A stretch of DNA of 64,000 bases, taken from assembly GCA_964482645.1 (NCBI GenBank), contig CAYZYQ010000002.1, forward strand, positions 21,111 to 85,110, read 5' to 3'. How positions within the stretch are numbered: position 1 is the first letter of the stretch; the number at the start of each line of letters is the position of its first letter. Made by a program: the position numbers and the translations under genes. This DNA comes from an uncultured Lentisphaeraceae bacterium. Lineage in GTDB: Bacteria > Verrucomicrobiota > Kiritimatiellia > RFP12 > UBA1067. Under the pieces are notes generated by a model. The model was not told the origin of the DNA, made no database searches, and saw only the letters and a list, made by a program, of their open reading frames with translations. This document shows, piece by piece, positions 3,581 through 54,591 of the stretch.

Positions 3581-3592
3581 GGGGGGGGGGGG
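3581..3592. repeat. G12 homopolymer in the DUF192-purH intergenic region
   Basis: Twelve consecutive G read at 3581-3592. Confidence 0.95.
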
Positions 3593-3723
3593 CGTGATTA
3601 AAATTGGGCACGTGCTAGGAGGAGGATCGCTTCTTCGATCATGAAATTGGGAAGGTTACGGTGGATGAAACAGTGCTTTCATCCCTATTTTAGTTCCGGG
3701 TGGATGTGCTCTCTCGGTGGATG

Positions 3724-26180: not shown

Positions 26181-26278
26181 TTCATGCCGGTGGTCGTGGG
26201 CAACGGTGTCGCCGCGGCCTCCAGTCAACGGATGCGTGGCGCGTGGGTAAAATCCGCGGCCATGGAGATGTGTTTTTT

Positions 26279-26287
26279 TGGTATAAT
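26279..26287 (+). promoter_or_regulatory. extended -10 element TGgTATAAT upstream of purL
   Basis: tttttTGgTATAATgcc was read directly. It lies 81 nt upstream of ATG 26369. Confidence 0.4.
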
Positions 26288-26368: not shown

Positions 26369-30259
<3,891 letters not shown>

Positions 30260-38884: not shown

Positions 38885-38945
38885 AAGGCGTTCAGGCCAA
38901 TCCTTATTTCGTCTCCGGTTGTAACGCGATTTGGAGGCGTCTCAA

Positions 38946-38978
38946 AGTGTCCCAGCGTACGGGACACTTTTTCTTTTC
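38946..38978 (+). terminator. rho-independent terminator after thiM
   Basis: Stem AGTGTCCC, loop agcgtac, stem GGGACACT, followed by TTTTTCTTTT. Confidence 0.75.
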
Positions 38979-39000: not shown

Positions 39001-39028
39001 TTGACAAGAAAAAAAAAATGCATATAAT
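39001..39028 (+). promoter_or_regulatory. promoter of giant protein 1: TTGACA, 16-nt spacer, TATAAT, with an A10 tract in the spacer
   Basis: TTGACAagAAAAAAAAAAtgcaTATAAT was read directly. The A-run is 39009-39018. Confidence 0.6.
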
Positions 39029-39095: not shown

Positions 39096-41987
39096 ATGAC
39101 CGTAAAACATGTGGCATGTGTGGCGTTCGGACTCGCGCTGGCGGGATCGTTGGCGGCGGAGACATGGTATTTGAAGGGCGGTGGCGCACATCGCATCGTG
39201 GACAACGGAAAGAGCGACTGGGGTTACGACTGGTACGCGACGGGCGAGAACGGGAACTGGACGAACGCCCTTGGCGCCGTCGGCGTTCCCGCCGAAGGGG
39301 ATGTGGTCGTCATTCCGGCGAAGGATCCGGCCGCAGACAAAGACACCGTTACGTTTTCGGCCAGCGGCGGGAGCGATGGCAGTCGGACGAAGCCGATCGA
39401 CGCATTGATCGCGTTGGGGAAGACGTGTCTGCACCAGGGGACGCTCGTGCTGCGCGCAGGCGGCGCGGGGTTGTCCATCGGCGGAAACAGCATCTGGTGG
39501 TCGGGGATTGAATGCGTGCCCCGTGGCGAGGACGATTTAGACGCGCAAAGCGTTGTGCTCACCGTGCCGAAGAACGTGACCTTTCAACTTCAGAAGGGTG
39601 TCGTCAGTTCGGGTCCGTCATTTACCAAGGCGGGCGACGGCACGTTCGTGAACTTCTGCGAGGGCGACACGGGCTACGCATTGACGGATTTATATAACAT
39701 GACCGTCCGATTGCAGGGCGGTACGTTCGTGAACAACATGTCGCGCCCCGCGAAGGGCGTCCGTTTCGTCTTTGATTCGGACGATCCAAATGTTCGCCTC
39801 GCGCTGGGGCGAACGGGAGCGGCCAACTATTGGAATTGGGCAATCGAGGATGGCGCGATCGAGGAGACGGACGCGGTTCAGAATACGGAACACGGCATCA
39901 CGACCACGCATACGGATCGGAACCACTATCTCACGATCTGTGGAACGCCGACGGTCAACCCGATGCGGTTCACGGGGGCGTTCTACGAAAAGGCGGGATT
40001 GGTGTGGAATCCCACGACGGCGGATGCGGAATTCGTGATCGCGAAATCAATTTCGCCGACGACGGGCGGGCTGCTCGTGTCGAACGGCGTAGTTCGCCTT
40101 TCCGAGGGTGCCACATTTTCCAAGTTGTCGCGGTTGGACGTCGCGGGCGCCACGGCGCGTCTCGTTGTCGATTCGGGTGCGGGCGTCGCCTTTCAGGCGC
40201 AGGACGTCCGTGTGTCCGATGGTGCAAAAATCGTTGTCGGGCAGGGCGTGACGATTTCGTTCACGGCCGCAACAGTTGACGGTGTCGCGCTCGCGCCGGG
40301 ATTCCACACGGTGGCCACAGCGGCGACGTGGTTGGAAGGCGACGGTTGCGTGTATGTGTCGGGCGGCGAAACGCCGCAAATGAGTGCGGACACATGGACG
40401 GGCGCAGGGGCGGACACGGCGTTGACAACGGCCGCGAACTGGTCAACAGGTGAAACGCCCGATTTCACGACAGGTGGCCTTGTCGCTACGTTCGCGACGG
40501 GCGGTTCACGCGCGACGTTCGTGGGCGACACGATGCTCCGTTTGGCCGGCATCGTCTTCACGCAGCCGTTCACGCTGGACACGGCGGCGGATGCGAAGGG
40601 GATGTTGCTGCTGGGCGCGAACGGCATTTCGACTCCGGCGACCGAGACGGCCCAGACGTATGGCATTGGCTGGCCAATCGTGGCCGTTGCACCGCAGACG
40701 TGGACGGCTAAATCGAACACGACTGTCCGCTACACGACACCGGTGTCGGGATTGTCCACGTTCGATCGGATCGTCGTGGACGGCGAAGGGCGAACGGAAT
40801 TTCTCGCGGCGAACACGTTTCCGAACGACATGATGCTCACGAACGGTACCGTCCGTTTCGCGGGTGACAACGCGATGGGGGCGGCGACGGGTACGACGTG
40901 GGGCGATTCCGATCGGATGCTGCTCGTCTTCGGCGGTGGCGTGAACGTACGTCCTCTACAGTTGTTCATGCCGAGCGGGAGCAAGGACAACCGTATCCGT
41001 TTCGAGGCCGGGACGACGAACCGTTTTGAAGGGAAGGTCATGTTCGGTATCGAGTCTGGTTCTCCCTATCGGACGATGCAGACGGCGATGTTGTTGGGAC
41101 GGGACGCCGAGGTCACGTTTGCGGGCGGGTTGCACGTCCATTATCAGAACCACAACATCGCGGGCCCCGCGCACATCATCGTCACGAATCGGCCGCTCAT
41201 GGTACGTGATCGGTTCTGCCTCTATGCCAAAGATCTCGTCTACGACCTCTGCGTGGCGAACAATCGCGTGAGCGGCAATTCGAGTTTCTGGAACGCCGGA
41301 ACGCTCCGTACTTTGGTTCCATATGCACTTGAAAAGAATGCGCAGGGACAGGTGTCGCGTGTCCAGATGAACGGAACCGATTTTACGCTCGACCTCTGCG
41401 GCAACGACCAGTCGATGGGCGTCCTGGACGGGCGCAACGGGACGATCACGAGCGCGACGCCCGCGTTCTTCCACGTCGCGCAGAACCACATTCCGCAGTC
41501 GTGGGACAATGGGAATGTCTCGGGCAAGCCTAATGTCGGCATTACGAACGCCGTCGTCTTCACGGGCGGGGCGGGGCTTTCGCTCGACGCGGAATTGAAG
41601 GATTTCCCGCACGTGCTGACGGCGACGAGTTCGTCGTCGGGCATGGTGCAGGTGACGTCAGGCCGTCTGACGCTTGCCGCGCCGAACGGGTCGTGGACGA
41701 ACGCGACGGCGGCCGTCGTGGGCGGCGGCACGCTCGTGCTGGAACACGCGCAGGCGATCGGGCGCGAGACAGACATCCTCTTCGAGGGAACGGACGGGCG
41801 GCTTGAACTTGCGGCCGGCGTGGCGCAGAAATGCCGCGACCTCTATTTCGACGGCGTTCGCCAGCGTCCCGGCACGTACGGCAGTTCGCAGAGTGGTGCG
41901 CAGCACAAAGACGACGCGCGTTTCACCGGCACGGGCGTGCTGAACGTCCTGTCCGACGGCAAGGGCTTCATGCTCATCCTTCGTTAA
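39096..41987 (+). CDS. giant secreted beta-helix / autotransporter-associated beta-strand-repeat (PATR-like) protein 1, C-terminal GFMLILR
   Basis: RBS AGGAG and signal peptide MTVKHVACVAFGLALAGSLAA. Contains PATR-like units (TKAGDGTFVNF..., repeated GG(T/A)L motifs). 963 aa. Confidence 0.7.
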   Translation: MTVKHVACVAFGLALAGSLAAETWYLKGGGAHRIVDNGKSDWGYDWYATGENGNWTNALGAVGVPAEGDVVVIPAKDPAADKDTVTFSASGGSDGSRTKPIDALIALGKTCLHQGTLVLRAGGAGLSIGGNSIWWSGIECVPRGEDDLDAQSVVLTVPKNVTFQLQKGVVSSGPSFTKAGDGTFVNFCEGDTGYALTDLYNMTVRLQGGTFVNNMSRPAKGVRFVFDSDDPNVRLALGRTGAANYWNWAIEDGAIEETDAVQNTEHGITTTHTDRNHYLTICGTPTVNPMRFTGAFYEKAGLVWNPTTADAEFVIAKSISPTTGGLLVSNGVVRLSEGATFSKLSRLDVAGATARLVVDSGAGVAFQAQDVRVSDGAKIVVGQGVTISFTAATVDGVALAPGFHTVATAATWLEGDGCVYVSGGETPQMSADTWTGAGADTALTTAANWSTGETPDFTTGGLVATFATGGSRATFVGDTMLRLAGIVFTQPFTLDTAADAKGMLLLGANGISTPATETAQTYGIGWPIVAVAPQTWTAKSNTTVRYTTPVSGLSTFDRIVVDGEGRTEFLAANTFPNDMMLTNGTVRFAGDNAMGAATGTTWGDSDRMLLVFGGGVNVRPLQLFMPSGSKDNRIRFEAGTTNRFEGKVMFGIESGSPYRTMQTAMLLGRDAEVTFAGGLHVHYQNHNIAGPAHIIVTNRPLMVRDRFCLYAKDLVYDLCVANNRVSGNSSFWNAGTLRTLVPYALEKNAQGQVSRVQMNGTDFTLDLCGNDQSMGVLDGRNGTITSATPAFFHVAQNHIPQSWDNGNVSGKPNVGITNAVVFTGGAGLSLDAELKDFPHVLTATSSSSGMVQVTSGRLTLAAPNGSWTNATAAVVGGGTLVLEHAQAIGRETDILFEGTDGRLELAAGVAQKCRDLYFDGVRQRPGTYGSSQSGAQHKDDARFTGTGVLNVLSDGKGFMLILR

Positions 41988-42107
41988 CGGCGAATCGTCG
42001 CTCCTGCGGTTAGTCAAAAAAAAAGAACGCCGAAAAGCTGAAGGTCTTGCACGGGCGGGTCGAAAAACTACGCACAGATTGTTCGCGTCCCACGGGCACG
42101 TGTATTG

Positions 42108-42116: not shown

Positions 42117-42187
42117 TCCGCCATGTTCTTCTTCCACGAATTTGTCTTTCGGATTTGGGCGGTGCGACCGCAGGAGCGCGGCGTGGC

Positions 42188-43657
42188 ATGACTCGGACGC
42201 GGCAGGCCTGGTTGTCTTTTCTCGCCACGCGGCTCGTCGGCATTTGTGTCGATACGGCCGTCATGGGGGCGGCGTACGTGGGTGCGTTCGCCCTGCGGTT
42301 CGATTTTCGGGAACCGACGTGGGGCTGGGCGGGTGTCGCGCTGAGTTTCATCGCCGTCTGGGCCGCCCAGATGGTGAGTCTCGTCGCCACGGGGTGCTAC
42401 GGGTTGCCGTGGCGACGGACGGCACTCGTCGATCTGCCGCGTTACGTGGCGGCGGTGTTGCTTTCTGGCACGGTGCTGACGGGGCTTCGCTTTCTGCTGT
42501 CTTCGCCTGAACAGGCGGCGTTGCGTCCGCCATACTCGATCACATTGATCAACATGGTGCTGTGGCTGGTGGGGCTTGTCGCCGTGCGTTTCCTCTGGCG
42601 GGTCTACAAGATGTCCACGCCGGCGGTGGCAGAGCTTCTGAACCGCGACGAGGCGCGGCTCGATTCGCCGGATGTCGTCGCGTTGCTACACGGCGCGTGT
42701 GTGATGGTGACGGGTGCTGGCGGGTCGATTGGTCGTGAACTCGTCCGCCAGATCGTGCGGAACGGCCCGCGTCAAGTGTTGTTGGTGGAACGTGGCGAGA
42801 ACGCGCTCTACGAAATCGACCGCGAAATTCGCCAGCTGGGGACGGACGTCGAATGTCTGCCGCAGATGGTAGATATTGCCGACGCGCCGCGAATGCGCGC
42901 GTTGTTCGCCCGGTACCGGCCGGACGTCGTGCTTCACGCCGCCGCTTACAAGCACGTACCGATGGTTGAGGCCAACCCGCGCGAAGGGTTGTGCAACAAC
43001 ACCGTCGCCACGCGTCGGCTCGGCGAGATGGCGCGCGCGGCGGGTGTTCGGCGGTTTGTGATGATTTCGACGGACAAAGCCGTCAACCCCGTGGGGGTGA
43101 TGGGGATTACGAAGCGGATGGCCGAAATCCTGCTGATGGATCTCAACGGTGGCGGGACGTCGTTCTGCGCCGTTCGCTTCGGCAACGTGCTGGGGTCGAG
43201 CGGCAGTGTGGTGCCGCTCTTCCGCGAGCAGATTGCGCGGCGGTTGCCTGTGACGGTGACGCATCCCGACATGAAACGCTACTTCATGACGGTCTCCGAG
43301 GCTGTCGGTCTCGTGCTGGAAGCGGCCGCGTTGGCGAAGGGCGGCGAAGTGTTCGTGCTCGACATGGGACAACCTGTGCGCATTGTCGATTTGGCTGAAC
43401 AGATGATCCGCCAGGCCGGTTTTCGTCCGTACGTGGACGTCCCCATTCGGTTCACGGGCATTCGTCCCGGCGAAAAGCTTTTTGAGGAACTGGATGTGAG
43501 TGAGCGGAGCGCGTTTAAGACTGGCCATGCGCGGATTTTCGTGAGCCGGAACGCGACTGGCGATGCGGCGACCGTCCAGACGCTCGTGCAGGATCTCACG
43601 GAACGTCCGCATGACGACGCGGACATCCGTACGCAGTTGAAGGACTGGGCGAAATAG
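42188..43657 (+). CDS. membrane-anchored polysaccharide biosynthesis NDP-sugar 4,6-dehydratase/epimerase (CapD/WbpM/PglF family)
   Basis: Four N-terminal TM segments, then a Rossmann domain VMVTGAGGSIGRELVRQI, HAAAYKHVPMVE, ISTDKAVNP, MGITKR. The start is ATG 42188 or TTG 42155. Confidence 0.8.
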   Translation: MTRTRQAWLSFLATRLVGICVDTAVMGAAYVGAFALRFDFREPTWGWAGVALSFIAVWAAQMVSLVATGCYGLPWRRTALVDLPRYVAAVLLSGTVLTGLRFLLSSPEQAALRPPYSITLINMVLWLVGLVAVRFLWRVYKMSTPAVAELLNRDEARLDSPDVVALLHGACVMVTGAGGSIGRELVRQIVRNGPRQVLLVERGENALYEIDREIRQLGTDVECLPQMVDIADAPRMRALFARYRPDVVLHAAAYKHVPMVEANPREGLCNNTVATRRLGEMARAAGVRRFVMISTDKAVNPVGVMGITKRMAEILLMDLNGGGTSFCAVRFGNVLGSSGSVVPLFREQIARRLPVTVTHPDMKRYFMTVSEAVGLVLEAAALAKGGEVFVLDMGQPVRIVDLAEQMIRQAGFRPYVDVPIRFTGIRPGEKLFEELDVSERSAFKTGHARIFVSRNATGDAATVQTLVQDLTERPHDDADIRTQLKDWAK

Positions 43658-44395: not shown

Positions 44396-47125
44396 ATGCA
44401 CATCAGGAAAACAGGAATGGGTTGTGTGCTGGCCGGCGTATTGGCGTCGACCGGGTTCGGCGGGGCCGTGGTGTCGGACGATGGCGCGACGCTCATCTTG
44501 TCGGCCGACGCGGGTGAGACGCTGACCTACTCGGACGCCTTGGCCGGCACGGTGACGAAGATTCTCAAAATCGGGAAAGGGCGCTATGTTTTCGCGCCCA
44601 CGACGCATACGTTCGGCGGCGCGATTGAAATCCAGGAGGGTGTGCTGTCCGGCAATCGCAGCCATTTCGGCAACCCCTCCGCCTGGAAGATTCTGCCGGA
44701 GGGGAGTGTGACGGAACATTCCGCCGGTACGGCGGGCGCGACGCTCCTGTTCGACGTGCGGCCGGACGACTACGCGGCTGGCGAGAATGAAAAGCCGACG
44801 GGGGCATTGGAAATCGGCGGTTCGGGTTTCGAGGGGCAGGGCGCGTTCTACTTCACGATGCTCCCGAACGGAAACGGCTCTGGCAATACCCTCAGCACGT
44901 CGCACTGGGCATTCAAGGGTGGCGTGAAACTGACGGCGGACACGACCGTGGGCGGCGGCCGTTTCGGCTTCAATACGATGGACATGCAGGGGTACGACCT
45001 CTACACGTACTGCACGAACGGGCAGGCGCAGTACGAAATGTATGGGCAAATCAAAAACGCGGGGAACATCCGCCTCAAGAAGGGGGAACTTCTTTTTGAG
45101 CGGGTCGCGGGGTTTTCACCCGCCGTGACGACGCAGTGCGTTGCGATGGCCGATGGGACGACCATACGGATGTACGATTCGCCGACGGACAATGCCATGA
45201 CGACGCTGGGGATTCGTCTGGAGGATAACGCCACGGCCAAGATTCTGGCGACGGGCGGCTCCGACATCCACTACGGGCGGAACGTTTGGAAGGGGGACGT
45301 ACATCTGGACAGGGGGCGGCAACTGAAGTTGATGGCGGATCGCGAGATGACGCTTGACGGCGCAATGGACGGCTCGGCGGATCTCTACAAAGGCGGTTCG
45401 TACGCCGCGACGATCACGTCCAACGCGACGCACGAGTTCCGTTCGCTGACGGTCGAGAAGGGAACGCTGGCACTCGGGCGGAACGCCGACGATACGCCCT
45501 ATTCCGTCACGAACATTTGGGCGGTGGCGGGTTCAGCGGCGGGCTGGGATTGTGCGCGGCTTGACTTGGGGGTGGATCTGCGGACGATGTCGGCGGTCCG
45601 CACGTCGTCGTCGGAGGTCATCCGTATCGGATACAATGGCGGATCGGGCAATCAGTACGGCATCGTCTCGATTGGCGACGGGGCCGTGGTGTCGAACGAG
45701 TTTATCATCGGCATGGGTAATGACACGCGGAACGCCATGGGCGCCGTGTACATGGGCGACGCGACGGTCTACTGGAAGGCGGGTTCCGGTAACGACGGCT
45801 TCATCGGCTCAAATGGAAAAGGTTCCGGTTTCTTCCTCCAGAACGGCGGCACGTTGACGCATACCGGCTATATGAATTTGGGGGCGCACGGTCGCGGCGT
45901 TTTTGTCCAGCGGGGCGGTCTGCATGAGATTCTCGGTTGGAATCCGCTCAAGATCGCGCGTACGGGTGCACCGTCGTATGGACTCTACCATCAGTCGGGC
46001 GGTACGCTCAAAGGGCAGAACATTTGGATGTGTTACGACTATCGCACGAATTGTGTGGATGTCCAGGCGGTCGTTACGACGACGGGGCGCGGCTCGCGCA
46101 TTGAGATGGACCGGACGCGCCTGTTCGTGTCGCGCCGGAACGTGGAGGGTGTCGTCAATGTGGCCGACGGCGCGGTTTGGTGCGGGCAGATCTATAAGGA
46201 TGTCGAGGCGAAGGACGTTATCTGGGACATGGTTAAGGACATCTGCCCGGACACGAAACTCTACGTGAACCTGAACGGCGGCATTCTGACGGCGAAGACG
46301 GCGGACGTGCTGGGCGCGGACGCTTCCCATGCGCCGGATCGCGTGACGGTCTACGAAGGCGGCGTGACGCTCGACGCCTCGGCTGCCGATCTTGTCTTCC
46401 ATGCGCCGTTCGAGAAGCCCGTCGGTCAGGGCGTTGCGTCCATCGCGCTGCCGGCGAACAGCGTCACGAATTTCAACTACTATGTCGGCTCGCCGCGCGT
46501 TCGCATCAAGAGCGCGACCGGCACAGGTGCCACGGCGATGGCGGACTTCAACGAGAAGACACGCCAGGTCGAGCGTATCCGCGTGATGAGTGCCGGTTGC
46601 GGCTATGCAGACGCGACGGCGACGATCGAAAACAACGTGTTTGGCGAAGTGGCGTTGGGCCAGGTTGTGCTGACGGAACTGTCCACGACGGGCGGCGTCA
46701 CGAAGACGGGCGCGAAGACGGCCACGCTGACGGGGGCGAACACGTACGGCGGTACGACGCGCCTCGCGGGCGGCACGTTGGCGTTCACGCATGAAGACGG
46801 CTATCCGGGCGGTGTACTTGAAATCTCCGCCGCCGTGTTGATGGGGGCGTCCGACGCGCCACCGCTTCTGAAAGCCGTGCGTTTGGCGTTCAATTCGGGC
46901 TGTGGCATTCGCGTGACGGAGGCCGAACGGCTCGACAAGGATATGCGGCGCGGTCTCCGGGACGTGATCGAGACGACCACGCCCTTGACGTCCCTGCCGC
47001 CCGTGACGTATGTCGATTCAACGGGCGCGGAGATTTCGCCCGGCGGCTGGACGTTCCTGCTGGACGCCGGCGGCTGTCGCGTCCGCTTCGCCTACCAGCG
47101 CGGCACGGTGCTGATTCTTCGTTGA
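44396..47125 (+). CDS. giant secreted beta-helix / PATR protein 2, C-terminal GTVLILR
   Basis: RBS AGAGGTG and a signal-like N-terminus MHIRKTGMGCVLAGVLASTGFGGA. Contains a canonical PATR unit VTKTGAKTATLTGANTYGGTTRLAGGTLAF. 909 aa. Confidence 0.75.
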   Translation: MHIRKTGMGCVLAGVLASTGFGGAVVSDDGATLILSADAGETLTYSDALAGTVTKILKIGKGRYVFAPTTHTFGGAIEIQEGVLSGNRSHFGNPSAWKILPEGSVTEHSAGTAGATLLFDVRPDDYAAGENEKPTGALEIGGSGFEGQGAFYFTMLPNGNGSGNTLSTSHWAFKGGVKLTADTTVGGGRFGFNTMDMQGYDLYTYCTNGQAQYEMYGQIKNAGNIRLKKGELLFERVAGFSPAVTTQCVAMADGTTIRMYDSPTDNAMTTLGIRLEDNATAKILATGGSDIHYGRNVWKGDVHLDRGRQLKLMADREMTLDGAMDGSADLYKGGSYAATITSNATHEFRSLTVEKGTLALGRNADDTPYSVTNIWAVAGSAAGWDCARLDLGVDLRTMSAVRTSSSEVIRIGYNGGSGNQYGIVSIGDGAVVSNEFIIGMGNDTRNAMGAVYMGDATVYWKAGSGNDGFIGSNGKGSGFFLQNGGTLTHTGYMNLGAHGRGVFVQRGGLHEILGWNPLKIARTGAPSYGLYHQSGGTLKGQNIWMCYDYRTNCVDVQAVVTTTGRGSRIEMDRTRLFVSRRNVEGVVNVADGAVWCGQIYKDVEAKDVIWDMVKDICPDTKLYVNLNGGILTAKTADVLGADASHAPDRVTVYEGGVTLDASAADLVFHAPFEKPVGQGVASIALPANSVTNFNYYVGSPRVRIKSATGTGATAMADFNEKTRQVERIRVMSAGCGYADATATIENNVFGEVALGQVVLTELSTTGGVTKTGAKTATLTGANTYGGTTRLAGGTLAFTHEDGYPGGVLEISAAVLMGASDAPPLLKAVRLAFNSGCGIRVTEAERLDKDMRRGLRDVIETTTPLTSLPPVTYVDSTGAEISPGGWTFLLDAGGCRVRFAYQRGTVLILR

Positions 47126-50672: not shown

Positions 50673-53600
50673 ATGGCGTACACAAAGAAAACTGAATGGT
50701 TGAAAAGAGCGCATCGGCTGGAAACGGTCGTGCGGCGCGTGGCGTGGAGTGTCTGCGCGTTTGCCGTGGTCGGAACGGCCGGTGCGGCGGAAATTGCCTT
50801 TTCGGGCGGCGGGGGCGATGGTGATCTCGCGTCGCCCGCCAACTGGACGGGTGGCGTCTTGCCAGGTACGGACGACGTCGCGGTCGTCGATGTCGGAACT
50901 TCGGGTGTTTCGTACACGTTGTCCGCTCCCGTGACGTTCGGCGGTCTCGTCTTTACGGACAACGCGGATGCCGCCGTCGAACTCGCGTCGGAGAGTACGC
51001 TGACGCTGGGCACGAACGGTCTGGTCTGCCGCGTGGCGGGCGGCATCGCGCTCAAATTGCCGCTGGCCGTCGCGGGCGAGCAGACGTGGAACTTCGGCGG
51101 TGGTCAAGCCAAGTTCTACAAGACGATCGCCGGCACGGATCCGCTGACGCTGGCGAACGCGAGGGGGCTTTGGCACTATTGGTCGCCGCGCTATGACGGC
51201 AAGATTTCATACACGGGCATCAAGCGGTGGAGCAACAAGGATGATTCCCGGCCGACGCATATCAACTTCTACGAGCCGGACTGCAAATAGGCAAATGAAA
51301 TCGCCCTGCTGGACTGGTGCGAAGTTCGCCTCCTTTTCGGCGGGCCTGTCAGTTTCGCGCAGCTCTTTCCGGGGATGGATCCGCTGTCGGTCGGGCAGGG
51401 CTTCGGCATTGAAGCCGTCGTGGCGACAAAGGACGAAGGTGCGGCCGGCGGCGTGGGCCGTCCGACGCTGACCGTTGGCGCGGGCGAGGCCGTCAAGATG
51501 TGGCAGTTCTGCCTGGGCGGCGGCGACATGATCCAGACGAACGGCTCGTTCACGACGCAGGATGCATTCTGGATCGGAAACAACTGGTACTACAACTACA
51601 CGTACGGCGAGCCGTGCCACTACTACTTGAAGGGCGGGGCTTTAGAGACGAAGACGCTGAATATTGGTGAGTACGGAAGGGGTGTCAATCGTCTCGTCCA
51701 GTCGGGCGGTACGGTGACGGTTTCTTCGACGATTGTCATGGGCGGCGGAAACCAGACGGATGAGAACTGCCTGTCTGAATGGTGTCAGGACGGCGGCACG
51801 GTGACGGTGACGTCCGTGTCCGCGCCGAACAACAACTACGGCACGCTGCTCTACTATCCGGAGGGGCAGTGGGGGGATGGACGGGCGTTGTACGAACTGA
51901 AGGGCGGTACGCACGTGACGCCGCGCCTCCTGTTCGGCACGAACTTCGACCCGACGCCGGACACGATGACAAAAGATCGTGGGTCGCACATGCCCTGCCA
52001 CAATTCGTACGGACTCTTCGACCTCGCGGGCGGGACACTGGACGTCGGCGTGGGCGGCATCGCGTCCGGCTGGAACTGGAATCCCGACGGCTGGATTTCG
52101 CCGGCGACGAACGCCTATGCCGACGTGCGTCTGCGCAAAGGTACGGTTCGGACGGGCACGAGCGCGACGACCGTGCCGCTGCGCATTCCGCGTTCGGATG
52201 CCGCCGTCGAGTGGAACACGGCGACGGACACCGCCCACACGGTCTTCGCGCCCGTTCTCGGCGACGGCAATCTCGTCAAGACGGGCGCGGGGACGCTCGC
52301 GTTGACCGACGCGACGGCGTTCAACGGTTCGATCGAGGTACGCGAAGGTTCGCTGCGCATTCTCGGCAAGGGCGGGGCTTCGGGCGAAGAGACGGCGCCC
52401 GTGGAGACCGGACACGACTTCTGGCAGTGGACGGGCGACGCGGCCCAGGCGGCCGGCGCGACGAACGGCGCGGCGGTCTCCATCTGGACAGACCTCCAGC
52501 ACGGTGTCGCGGCCACGAACGCGAACATCTACCTCCCCCACGAAGGAGGAAAGGACGTGCGCTACGCCTGTCCGACGCTTGTCGCCGGGGCGTTCAACGG
52601 ACACGCCGCCCTCCGCTTCAACGAGGCGATGCTGACCGTGCCGGCAGACGTGAACCCCTTCGTCGGTGCGAAGGAGATGACGATTGTTCTGGCGTTCAAG
52701 ATGACGGCGGCGGGCATGGAGCCAATCGACCGGGGTGAACGCGCATGGTACAGCTATTACGTTGACGGAACGCATATGCTGAATCCAGGTAACGGGGACT
52801 ACAAAGGAGCCTGGGGGCCGTGGTTCCAGTGGTGTAGTGGCAACCGTCTCAAGTTCATGGTGGATGTCGGTGGAGCTGTGGAGGCTGGCGATCACATTGT
52901 CGCGTCGCAAGAGGGTGTATCGCTTAAAGACGATGTCCATGTGGCCGTGGCGACTGTGAGCGAGGCCGACGGTATCACGCTGCTCGTCGATGGCGACTTC
53001 ACGAATCGCGTGTGGACGGGAGCGTACCATCCGTTGTTCAACGGTTACAACAATGCAAAGGCGCTTCCGCTCATGCTCGGCTGCCTCGTGAGCGACGCGG
53101 GAAACGCACGGACGATCAGCGGAATGCATTTGGGCGAAATGCGCATCTACACGAACGCGTTGTCGCGCACCATGATGTCGGATCTTTCCGCCGAGCTGTA
53201 CACGAAGTACAACGGAAAGCTGGAAGGACTTGCCAACGTTGTCTCCGGATGCGAGGGCGCCGTTGCGGGCGAACTCGTCGCGCCGGACGCGCCGGTGATT
53301 CCGGCGGATCTGCCCGCGCCGGCACAGCGCTGGACGGCCGATTCGCTGGCGGCGACGCATACGGACGGCGCGGCGGTCGAAAGCTGGGCGACGACGGACG
53401 GGACGCGCGCGCTGGCCGTCGAGGACGGGTGCACGGCGCCGATGTTCGTGGCGCAGTCCGCGAACGGACACGCCGCCGTCAGGTTCGACGCGGATGCGCA
53501 GACGTCGCTGGGCGCTCCGGCGAAGGACGTGTTGGCGCAGACGGACTGGAACAACTGGACGATGGCCGTCGTCTTCCGCGCCACGGAAGGGGCGACGGGA

Positions 53601-54488
53601 CGCACGGGCGTGATGGAAGGGCGCGGGCTCGTCTCGATGATGAAGGACGAGACGAGCAAGAACGCATTCCAGTTTGCACTCGTCACGAACGGCGAACTGC
53701 GCGCCTATTCGTCCGAGGAGAGCGTCTTCCGCCGTCGCCCGTTGCGGCTCGACGACGGCGCCGTCCATGTGGCCGTCTTCACGAGCGACATGGCAGGACG
53801 TTACTGCGGCAAGCAGGACTGCATTTTCGTCGTCGATGGCATTGTGAACGAATACAAGCCATGGTCGAATCCCGAACTCATGAAGACCGATGCGTTCCGT
53901 CTGCGCCTGGGGCAGCTCGTCAACGGCAAGGGCTTCTTCTCCGGCGAGATTCTGGAAGTGCGGTGGTACACGGCGGTGAACGCGCCGCTGACGATGGAGC
54001 AGACGCTCGGCGTGTGCACGGAACTGGCGACGACGTACGGCGTGCCGCTCTATCCGCGCGGAAACTTCGGCCCTGGCAAGGTGGCGGCGTATGGCCTTGG
54101 GGCGACGAACGTCTCCGTGGCGGCGGGCGCGACGCTCGTCTTGCCGCAGGCCGTCCAGTCGCCCTACACGGTCGGCGCGGGACAGACGCTGACGTTGGAC
54201 GGTGGCGAGGTCATGGGGCCGCTCGTCGTGTCGGACGGTGGCGCGTTGCGTCTGACGTACGGACAGATGGCGGAAATCGAATCGCTGAAAGCCGTCGACG
54301 CGGTGCGTCTCGACGTCGTGGGCCTGCCATCGAACCGTGGCTCGTTCACGCCGCTTGCGCGAGTCGGCACGGCGGACATGGCGGAGGCAAGCTGGACGGT
54401 TGTAGGACGTCGTGGCAGCACGGTGGAAATCCGCGACGGCGTGCTGGGCGTCGTCTCGCGTAACGGCACCGTCCTGATTCTCCGCTGA
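50673..54488 (+). pseudogene. giant beta-helix / PATR protein 3 with two LamG-like domains and C-terminal GTVLILR, interrupted by one in-frame TAG at 51288-51290
   Basis: ORFs 50673..51290 and 51375..54488 are in the same frame, and the 84 nt between them has no stop and stays GC3-rich. Contains a PATR unit NLVKTGAGTLALTDATAFNGSIEVREGSLRIL and two LamG-like blocks (...NGHAALRFNEAML..., ...NGHAAVRFDADAQ...). Confidence 0.6.
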
Positions 54489-54561: not shown

Positions 54562-54591
54562 TTGACGCGGGGGCGGGACGGGCGGTATAAT
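54562..54591 (+). promoter_or_regulatory. sigma70-like promoter: TTGACG, 18-nt spacer, TATAAT
   Basis: aaTTGACGcgggggcgggacgggcggTATAATgcc was read directly. Confidence 0.45.

Follow-up and report, generated by a model that had tools for sequence, protein, structure and literature searches.

Candidate Slippage-Switched Promoters with Homopolymer Spacers at Genes for Large Secreted Proteins of an Uncultured Gut Kiritimatiellae Bacterium

The window (the whole stretch of DNA analyzed here, 64,000 nucleotides long with a GC content of 61.5%) encodes on its forward strand three large proteins that are predicted to be secreted. Gene 1 (39096..41987, + strand), which follows the ribosome-binding site AGGAGA (39084-89), encodes a 963-aa product with a signal peptide and the C-terminus GKGFMLILR; it has no Pfam or other family match. 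Gene 2 (44396..47125, + strand) encodes a 909-aa, predicted all-beta protein ending in RGTVLILR, and gene 3 (50673..54488, + strand) encodes a protein of 1271 or 1272 aa ending in NGTVLILR; each of these has a signal peptide and a single match to the PATR repeat (TIGR02601). A signal peptide and a C-terminal tail are common to all three products, PATR-type repeats to those of genes 2 and 3, and we infer that the proteins are surface-exposed. No domain match to the C-terminal beta-barrel translocator of type V autotransporters was found in genes 1-3.

In the window, gene 3 is broken by an in-frame TAG (51288-51290) where all 13 other assemblies have TGG (Trp). The stop codon is unique among the 14 sequences and is a strain-specific nonsense change, in a gene whose promoter tract does not vary (see below). 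A small, strongly divergent patch in the same gene (52734-52745) separates the 1271-aa from the 1272-aa alleles and looks like a recombination import.

An AlphaFold model of the gene 2 product (13 orthologues; pLDDT 85.7, pTM 0.81) is all-beta. Its best Foldseek matches in the PDB are all right-handed beta-helices, namely the autotransporter passengers SepA, Ag43, Hap, and Hbp together with phage tailspikes; the matches are weak, none being significant (best E 0.01, TM ~0.2). The tail, G-x-x-(L/I/V/M/F)3-4-R/K immediately before the stop codon, persists among gene 1 and gene 2 orthologues with as little as approximately 30-36% identity, and the same short tail occurs in an unrelated PA14-domain protein of another species (L195, 2635-6099). 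No Pfam or NCBIfam model covers it. In gut Kiritimatiellae the tail probably serves as a signal for sorting or anchoring.

A promoter-like cassette of the common form TTGAC(A/G)-N2-5-A9/10-TGNN-TAWAAT lies upstream of each of the three genes, 40-68 nt ahead of an ATG start codon that has a ribosome-binding site. Cassette P1 (39001..39028, + strand) consists of TTGACA (39001-06), ag, A10 (39009-18), TGca, and TATAAT (39023-28), with a 16-nt spacer between the hexamers. In P2 (44303..44332, + strand), TTGACA (44303-08) is followed by agaag, A9 (44314-22), TGgc, and TAAAAT (44327-32), giving an 18-nt spacer; P3 (50603..50633, + strand) has TTGACG (50603-08), gcaat, A10 (50614-23), TGgg, and TATAAT (50628-33), and its spacer is 19 nt long. 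All three sites thus have a simple sequence repeat, a homopolymer run of roughly 8 nt or longer, between the -35 and -10 hexamers. In a consensus scan the two hexamers of P1 matched at 12/12 positions and those of P2 at 11/12; those of P3 likewise agree with the consensus at 11/12. P2 is divergent from a gene for a 146-aa protein and P3 from a gene for an Rrf2-family regulator. P1 is preceded by a terminator-like hairpin (38944..38970, + strand), a 10-pair stem followed by a T-rich tail (TTCTTTTCC), which lies after a hydroxyethylthiazole-kinase-like gene and so sets gene 1 apart in a transcription unit of its own. We presume the boxes P1-P3 to be promoters that are actually used.

The cassette is far from what base composition would produce. 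The string A9-TG-NN-TAWAAT occurs three times in the window, against an expectation of 0.00 from 100 dinucleotide-preserving shuffles, and overlapping A9 matches number six against a shuffle mean of 0.35. The window holds four A runs of at least 9 nt, all on the + strand; the one outside any promoter spacer, an A9 at 42016..42024 (+ strand), has no adjacent -10 box and serves as an internal control. P1-P3 are the only sites in the window at which TTGAC is followed by any homopolymer of at least 7 nt. Our re-reading of the window agrees in these respects with the first-pass annotation, which had given the coordinates, sequences, and spacer lengths of the three boxes, had placed the end of each A run 4 nt before the -10 hexamer, had confined the cassette to these three sites in the window, and had denied the A9 at 42016-24 a -10 context.

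Two other readings of the cassette were rejected. It is not an extended -10 element (TGn, with TG at -15/-14), as the TG sits two nucleotides from the hexamer rather than one (TGca, TGgc, or TGgg) and is not kept in a sister species, which has CGAA or TACA in its place. Nor are the A runs terminator tails, since they precede + strand genes and are themselves in the coding strand. A TTGAC-A10 match on the minus strand of another assembly (L082, position 18302) is such a tail, a T10 between convergent genes, and is unrelated.

Several other promoter-like sites were noted in the window. The only other match to TTGAC-N-TAWAAT is at 54562-54591, where TTGACG is followed by a G-rich 18-nt spacer with no homopolymer and TATAAT; this box adjoins gene 3 downstream, at the 5' end of a 344-aa ORF that has no family match. 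A G12 run (3581-3592) lies 6 nt upstream of TAAAAT (3599-3604), which is followed by an AGGAGG ribosome-binding site and an ATG at 3641; the gene behind it encodes a 482-aa AICARFT/IMPCHase (purH-like), a housekeeping enzyme, and has neither the LILR tail nor a TTGACA box. A T7 run (26273-26279) stands directly before GG-TATAAT upstream of another housekeeping gene, purL (26369-30259).

The three genes had been described as paralogues, an idea that the protein comparison did not sustain. BLASTP among the products gave best E values of 1.1, 0.010, and 4e-4, over short repeat-like stretches, so that a recent paralogue family with an inherited promoter is rejected. Paralogy likewise fails as a source of the cassette: the coding regions have no real similarity, and the upstream DNA of genes 1-3 can be aligned with one another solely across the box. 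With no detectable paralogy and with upstream alignment limited to the cassette, the shared box is not a remnant of a recent duplication.

Tract lengths among strains of the same species were compared using the many public ENA and Logan assemblies that encode proteins identical to those of gene 1, gene 2, and the Rrf2 gene. The population set comprises at least 20 samples from at least six accession series; several ERZ272710xx accessions come from one series and may not be independent samples, and each assembly shows the majority allele of its sample alone. At P1 the tract is A10 in seven samples and A9 in five, the A9 allele giving a 15-nt spacer; at P2 it is A9 in six samples and A10 in seven, the A10 allele giving a 19-nt spacer. 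The P3 tract is A10 in 13/13 samples and the control at 42016 is A9 in 12/12. Minor alleles therefore make up 11/25 observations at P1 and P2 combined, versus 0/25 at P3 and the 42016 A9 (Fisher p = 2.4e-4). These last two tracts, equal in length to the variable ones and non-varying, provide natural within-locus controls.

Most of the fragments compared are at least 99.9% identical to the window, and the only indels in approximately 23 kb are those at 39009 and 44313, with three exceptions set aside: the gene 3 patch at 52734-45, a rearrangement breakpoint at 47548 in L082, and the L091 strain (97% identity). At P2, a 3.2-kb haplotype that is identical in eight assemblies is split between A9 (three) and A10 (five). 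At P1, there are two SNP positions over 4.75 kb, and both tract alleles are present on the major haplotype. Near-clonal strains thus differ in length at P1 and P2 and agree at P3. This shows that the P1 and P2 tracts either mutate at a far higher rate than the DNA around them or are subject to diversifying selection. All four combinations of P1 and P2 lengths occur, namely (10,9) in four samples, (9,10) in two, and (10,10) and (9,9) in one each; the states of the two tracts are independent of each other.

These results divide the proposal of the first-pass annotation that slipped-strand mispairing switches all three promoters. It gains support at P1 and P2, whose tracts vary, and not at P3, which among these strains has the constant length that the annotation had set against its own proposal. 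That annotation had further argued that gain or loss of one nucleotide would move each promoter toward or away from the 17-nt spacer, the canonical optimum for -35/-10 spacing. A 17-nt spacer occurs in 0/25 observations at P1 and P2, and the alternative alleles go from 16 to 15 nt and from 18 to 19 nt, away from 17; with no 17-nt allele seen, the idea of a move toward the optimum is unproven. Reversible switching within the population is suggested by homoplasy, in data where each assembly gives a majority allele and where recombination of standing alleles could mimic the same pattern.

It is most improbable that the length differences are homopolymer errors of sequencing or assembly. Homopolymers of 9-10 nt are prone to error, and two Logan contigs break exactly at the cassette, L090 starting at the A tract and L194 at the TTGACG box. 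However, no assembly shows any change in the equal-length A10 of P3 or the 42016 A9, nor in a T9 of a third species (see below), and it is because such tracts never change in the same contigs that an assembly artefact can be argued against. Several accession series, moreover, yielded both alleles, as did two assembly pipelines (Logan, and MEGAHIT k141 in ENA), and the consensus represents the majority of reads. The contig breaks could themselves reflect length heterogeneity within a sample.

A second possibility is that A9 and A10 are old standing alleles reshuffled by homologous recombination, an ordinary polymorphism in which tract mutation is not unusually fast. Each locus has two alleles only, and recombination is present in this population, as the gene 3 patch and the structural variant of L082 indicate. 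Yet both alleles lie on identical multi-kb haplotypes with 0-2 SNPs, which would call for tiny recombination tracts carrying just the indel, in a region without any other indel polymorphism; the pattern is also repeated at two poly-G promoters of another species, one of them with three alleles. We regard this explanation as improbable.

The L082 assembly (ERZ27271040) has other gene content downstream of gene 2, from 47548 onward, including genes for a fucosidase, an acyl-CoA dehydrogenase, and a flavodoxin. In that strain the block of oxaloacetate decarboxylase, NfeD, Rrf2, and gene 3 is on a separate contig (L107); the structural variant adjoins the variable genes.

The promoter architecture recurs in two further species. 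In a sister species, with approximately 70% protein identity and a different gene neighborhood, gene 2 orthologues (71% identity) are preceded by TTGACGag-A10-CGAA-TATAAT (L093, GCA_964386385.1) and TTGACGagag-A10-TACA-TATAAT (L094), and the gene 1 orthologue of the same sister genome (69%) by TTGACGag-A9-CGAA-TATAAT (L193, L194). The spacers are 15, 16, and 18 nt long, and upstream regions of the sister species and the window are unalignable outside the cassette. In a third species (L195-L198), at approximately 59% identity, the gene 1 orthologue has the tail LALILR and is preceded by TTGACA-G10 or TTGACAA-G10; the tract is followed by CGTATGG-TATGCT, and the spacer is 17 or 18 nt long. The same species encodes the 1154-aa PA14-domain protein, with the tail TALILR, behind TTGACA-G9, G10, or G11 across three samples. 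Over 17-22 kb at 99.8% identity, no indels other than these G-tract changes occur, and a T9 close by keeps its length.

Across the three species, a homopolymer promoter was found in 7/7 LILR-tail genes with a visible upstream region, and at none of the other genes of the same loci. Gene 2 orthologues at 50% and 43% identity (L095 and L096) have no tract, so the feature is confined to a sub-clade. A search of GTDB species representatives with the neighboring CapD-like gene (42155-43657) found the closest genes to be 52-66% identical and non-syntenic, with the motif absent; the closest relatives by this gene are rumen and gut Kiritimatiellae MAGs, at no more than 66% identity.

The comparison bears on a further alternative, in which a strong promoter has the homopolymer as a fixed element of its architecture (for example a regulator site, or a spacer that is rigid or has a narrow groove) and changes of one nucleotide are neutral slippage noise. 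At all six poly-A promoters the run is A9 or A10, and exactly 4 nt separate its end from the -10 hexamer, although the spacers range from 15 to 19 nt and differ by 3 nt in the window alone; this constancy could mean a fixed structural role, and the invariance of P3 and the missing 17-nt allele fit as well. General neutral slippage, on the other hand, should also have varied P3 and the 42016 A9, which it did not. The four nucleotides between tract and -10 are not conserved (TGCA, TGGC, TGGG, CGAA, or TACA), and at 59% identity poly-G (G9, G10, or G11) replaces poly-A. Since an orthologous promoter carries poly-G, conservation extends neither to the geometry of an A tract nor to any sequence-specific site, and we consider a fixed architecture unlikely. 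Retention of the tract while its base changes from A to G points instead to selection on mutability rather than on a binding sequence.

The first-pass annotation had also proposed to test the association of the motif with LILR-tail proteins, and the seven genes above show a homopolymer promoter in each case. A metagenome-wide scan with the pattern TTGACR-N1-6-A9-TG-NN-TAWAAT returned 78 loci, mostly AT-rich chance matches. Nine high-GC loci (L118, L122, L128, L150, L158, L160, L164, L165, and L189) are not LILR promoters; they belong to a family of group II introns encoding a 592-aa reverse transcriptase/maturase (TIGR04416) and carrying domain V/VI (RF00029). Their boxes read TTGACAGG-A9/10-TGCG-TATAAT or TTGACAG-A10/11-TGAT-TATAAT, with tract length varying between copies, and are found directly after the maturase stop (TGA within TTGACA), approximately 57 nt before domain V; the box may act as a promoter that faces outward or form a hairpin of domain IV. 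What had looked like an "N-terminal leader" (GKPYAGNPHVRFDEGE) proved to be a translation of intron domain V. An Rfam scan of the window gave no match at the gathering threshold, so the window cassettes are not intron-borne.

Taken together, we think it likely that P1, P2, and this type of cassette are sigma-70-type promoters with a hypermutable homopolymer in the spacer, forming a slippage-driven switch for secreted beta-helix proteins. Replication slippage would gain or lose one A in the tract, and the resulting 1-bp change in the spacer (from 16 to 15 nt at P1 and from 18 to 19 nt at P2) would alter both the distance and the rotation between the hexamers, thereby changing the frequency of transcription initiation. 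A 1-bp change is accordingly expected to alter expression, with one allele presumably ON. Each gene could be switched or dimmed on its own, heritably yet reversibly, and the outcome would be a mixed population whose cells display different sets of large secreted beta-helix proteins with the LILR tail. Such a mixture may represent bet-hedging against phage, host immunity, or changing gut substrates. The sequence comparisons support the view that P1 and P2 behave as contingency promoters of an architecture that recurs across species.

A broader conjecture is that gut Kiritimatiellae have a lineage-wide "contingency surfaceome," in which every gene for a short-tail secreted protein has its own consensus promoter with a spacer homopolymer. 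The short tail would then be a sorting signal not yet described. We hold this to be rather doubtful; if true, it would amount to combinatorial surface variation of the Vlp type in a high-GC diderm commensal. Two features would also depart from the textbook model: cassettes of one genome seem to resemble each other more than orthologous cassettes do, a hint of concerted evolution or copying, and the constancy of the poly-A length at 9 or 10, whatever the spacer, hints at an ON/OFF rule other than the classical 17-bp spacing.

Phase variation by promoter repeats is textbook knowledge for a few mucosal pathogens and mycoplasmas, while in gut commensals attention has been almost wholly on invertible promoters. 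The literature searched contained no report of phase variation in Kiritimatiellae, Verrucomicrobia, or other PVC bacteria. Within that literature, the promoter-spacer switch is of a known kind, and the phylum and the protein class are apparently new for it. Public metagenome assemblies alone have thus been enough to detect a candidate mutational switch in an uncultured gut bacterium of the PVC group. The switch suggests that fluctuating selection is likely to act on the large proteins with LILR tails, perhaps as phage receptors or in immunity or adhesion, and it offers a marker that can be scored in metagenomes (TTGACA followed by a homopolymer).

The closest parallel is in Mycoplasma hyorhinis, whose vlp genes reportedly carry poly(A) in the -35/-10 spacer, in work attributed to Yogev and colleagues in 1991 and to Citti and Wise in 1995. 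The vlp genes are clustered, clear paralogues for small lipoproteins in an AT-rich, wall-less host, and their tracts are approximately 17-20 A long. The cassettes described here resemble them in having poly-A within the promoter spacer and in serving several genes, each with its own tract. They differ in belonging to scattered, non-paralogous genes for beta-helix-like proteins of 900-1270 aa in a PVC-group diderm, at 61.5% GC and with tracts of only A9 or A10. Switching of vlp genes is independent and gives combinatorial surface expression; here the tract states of P1 and P2 are independent, and an effect on expression is predicted. The Vlp system is listed in a review of phase variation (PMC11868660).

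The Neisseria systems offer a comparison in which a 1-bp change in a homopolymer between or beside the -35 and -10 hexamers grades the transcription of an outer-membrane protein or turns it ON or OFF, as at porA, opc, fetA, and nspA. Spacer tracts in Neisseria meningitidis include the poly-G of porA, the poly-C of opc, and the tract of fetA. The present case is in another phylum and concerns unrelated proteins, with an effect of tract length that is predicted from sequence. The alleles of porA span the 17-nt optimum, whereas at P1 and P2 that length is not among the 25 alleles observed. The poly-A of the nspA promoter, upstream of the -10, gives low expression with 5A and high expression with 6A, and its alleles differ among near-identical isolates (PMC6389960).

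The tracts of P1-P3 lie strictly between consensus -35 and -10 hexamers, unlike those of fim2/fim3 and sabA. At these genes, a homopolymer in the promoter region tunes transcription of an adhesin or fimbriae (volume control, or rheostat), and what the tract changes is how an activator or UP-like site is phased relative to the core promoter. The tracts are poly-C at Bordetella pertussis fim2 and fim3 (PMC1891110) and poly-T, in the promoter, at Helicobacter pylori sabA (PMC2715451).

As for the proteins themselves, the gene 2 product may be likened to the passengers of type V autotransporters (Ag43, pertactin, and SepA) in its all-beta model, its non-significant matches to passenger beta-helices, and its PATR repeats. 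Ag43 is itself phase-variable. Unlike these autotransporters, the products of genes 1-3 end in a tail only a few residues long, G-x-x-(hydrophobic)3-4-R/K, in place of a C-terminal barrel.
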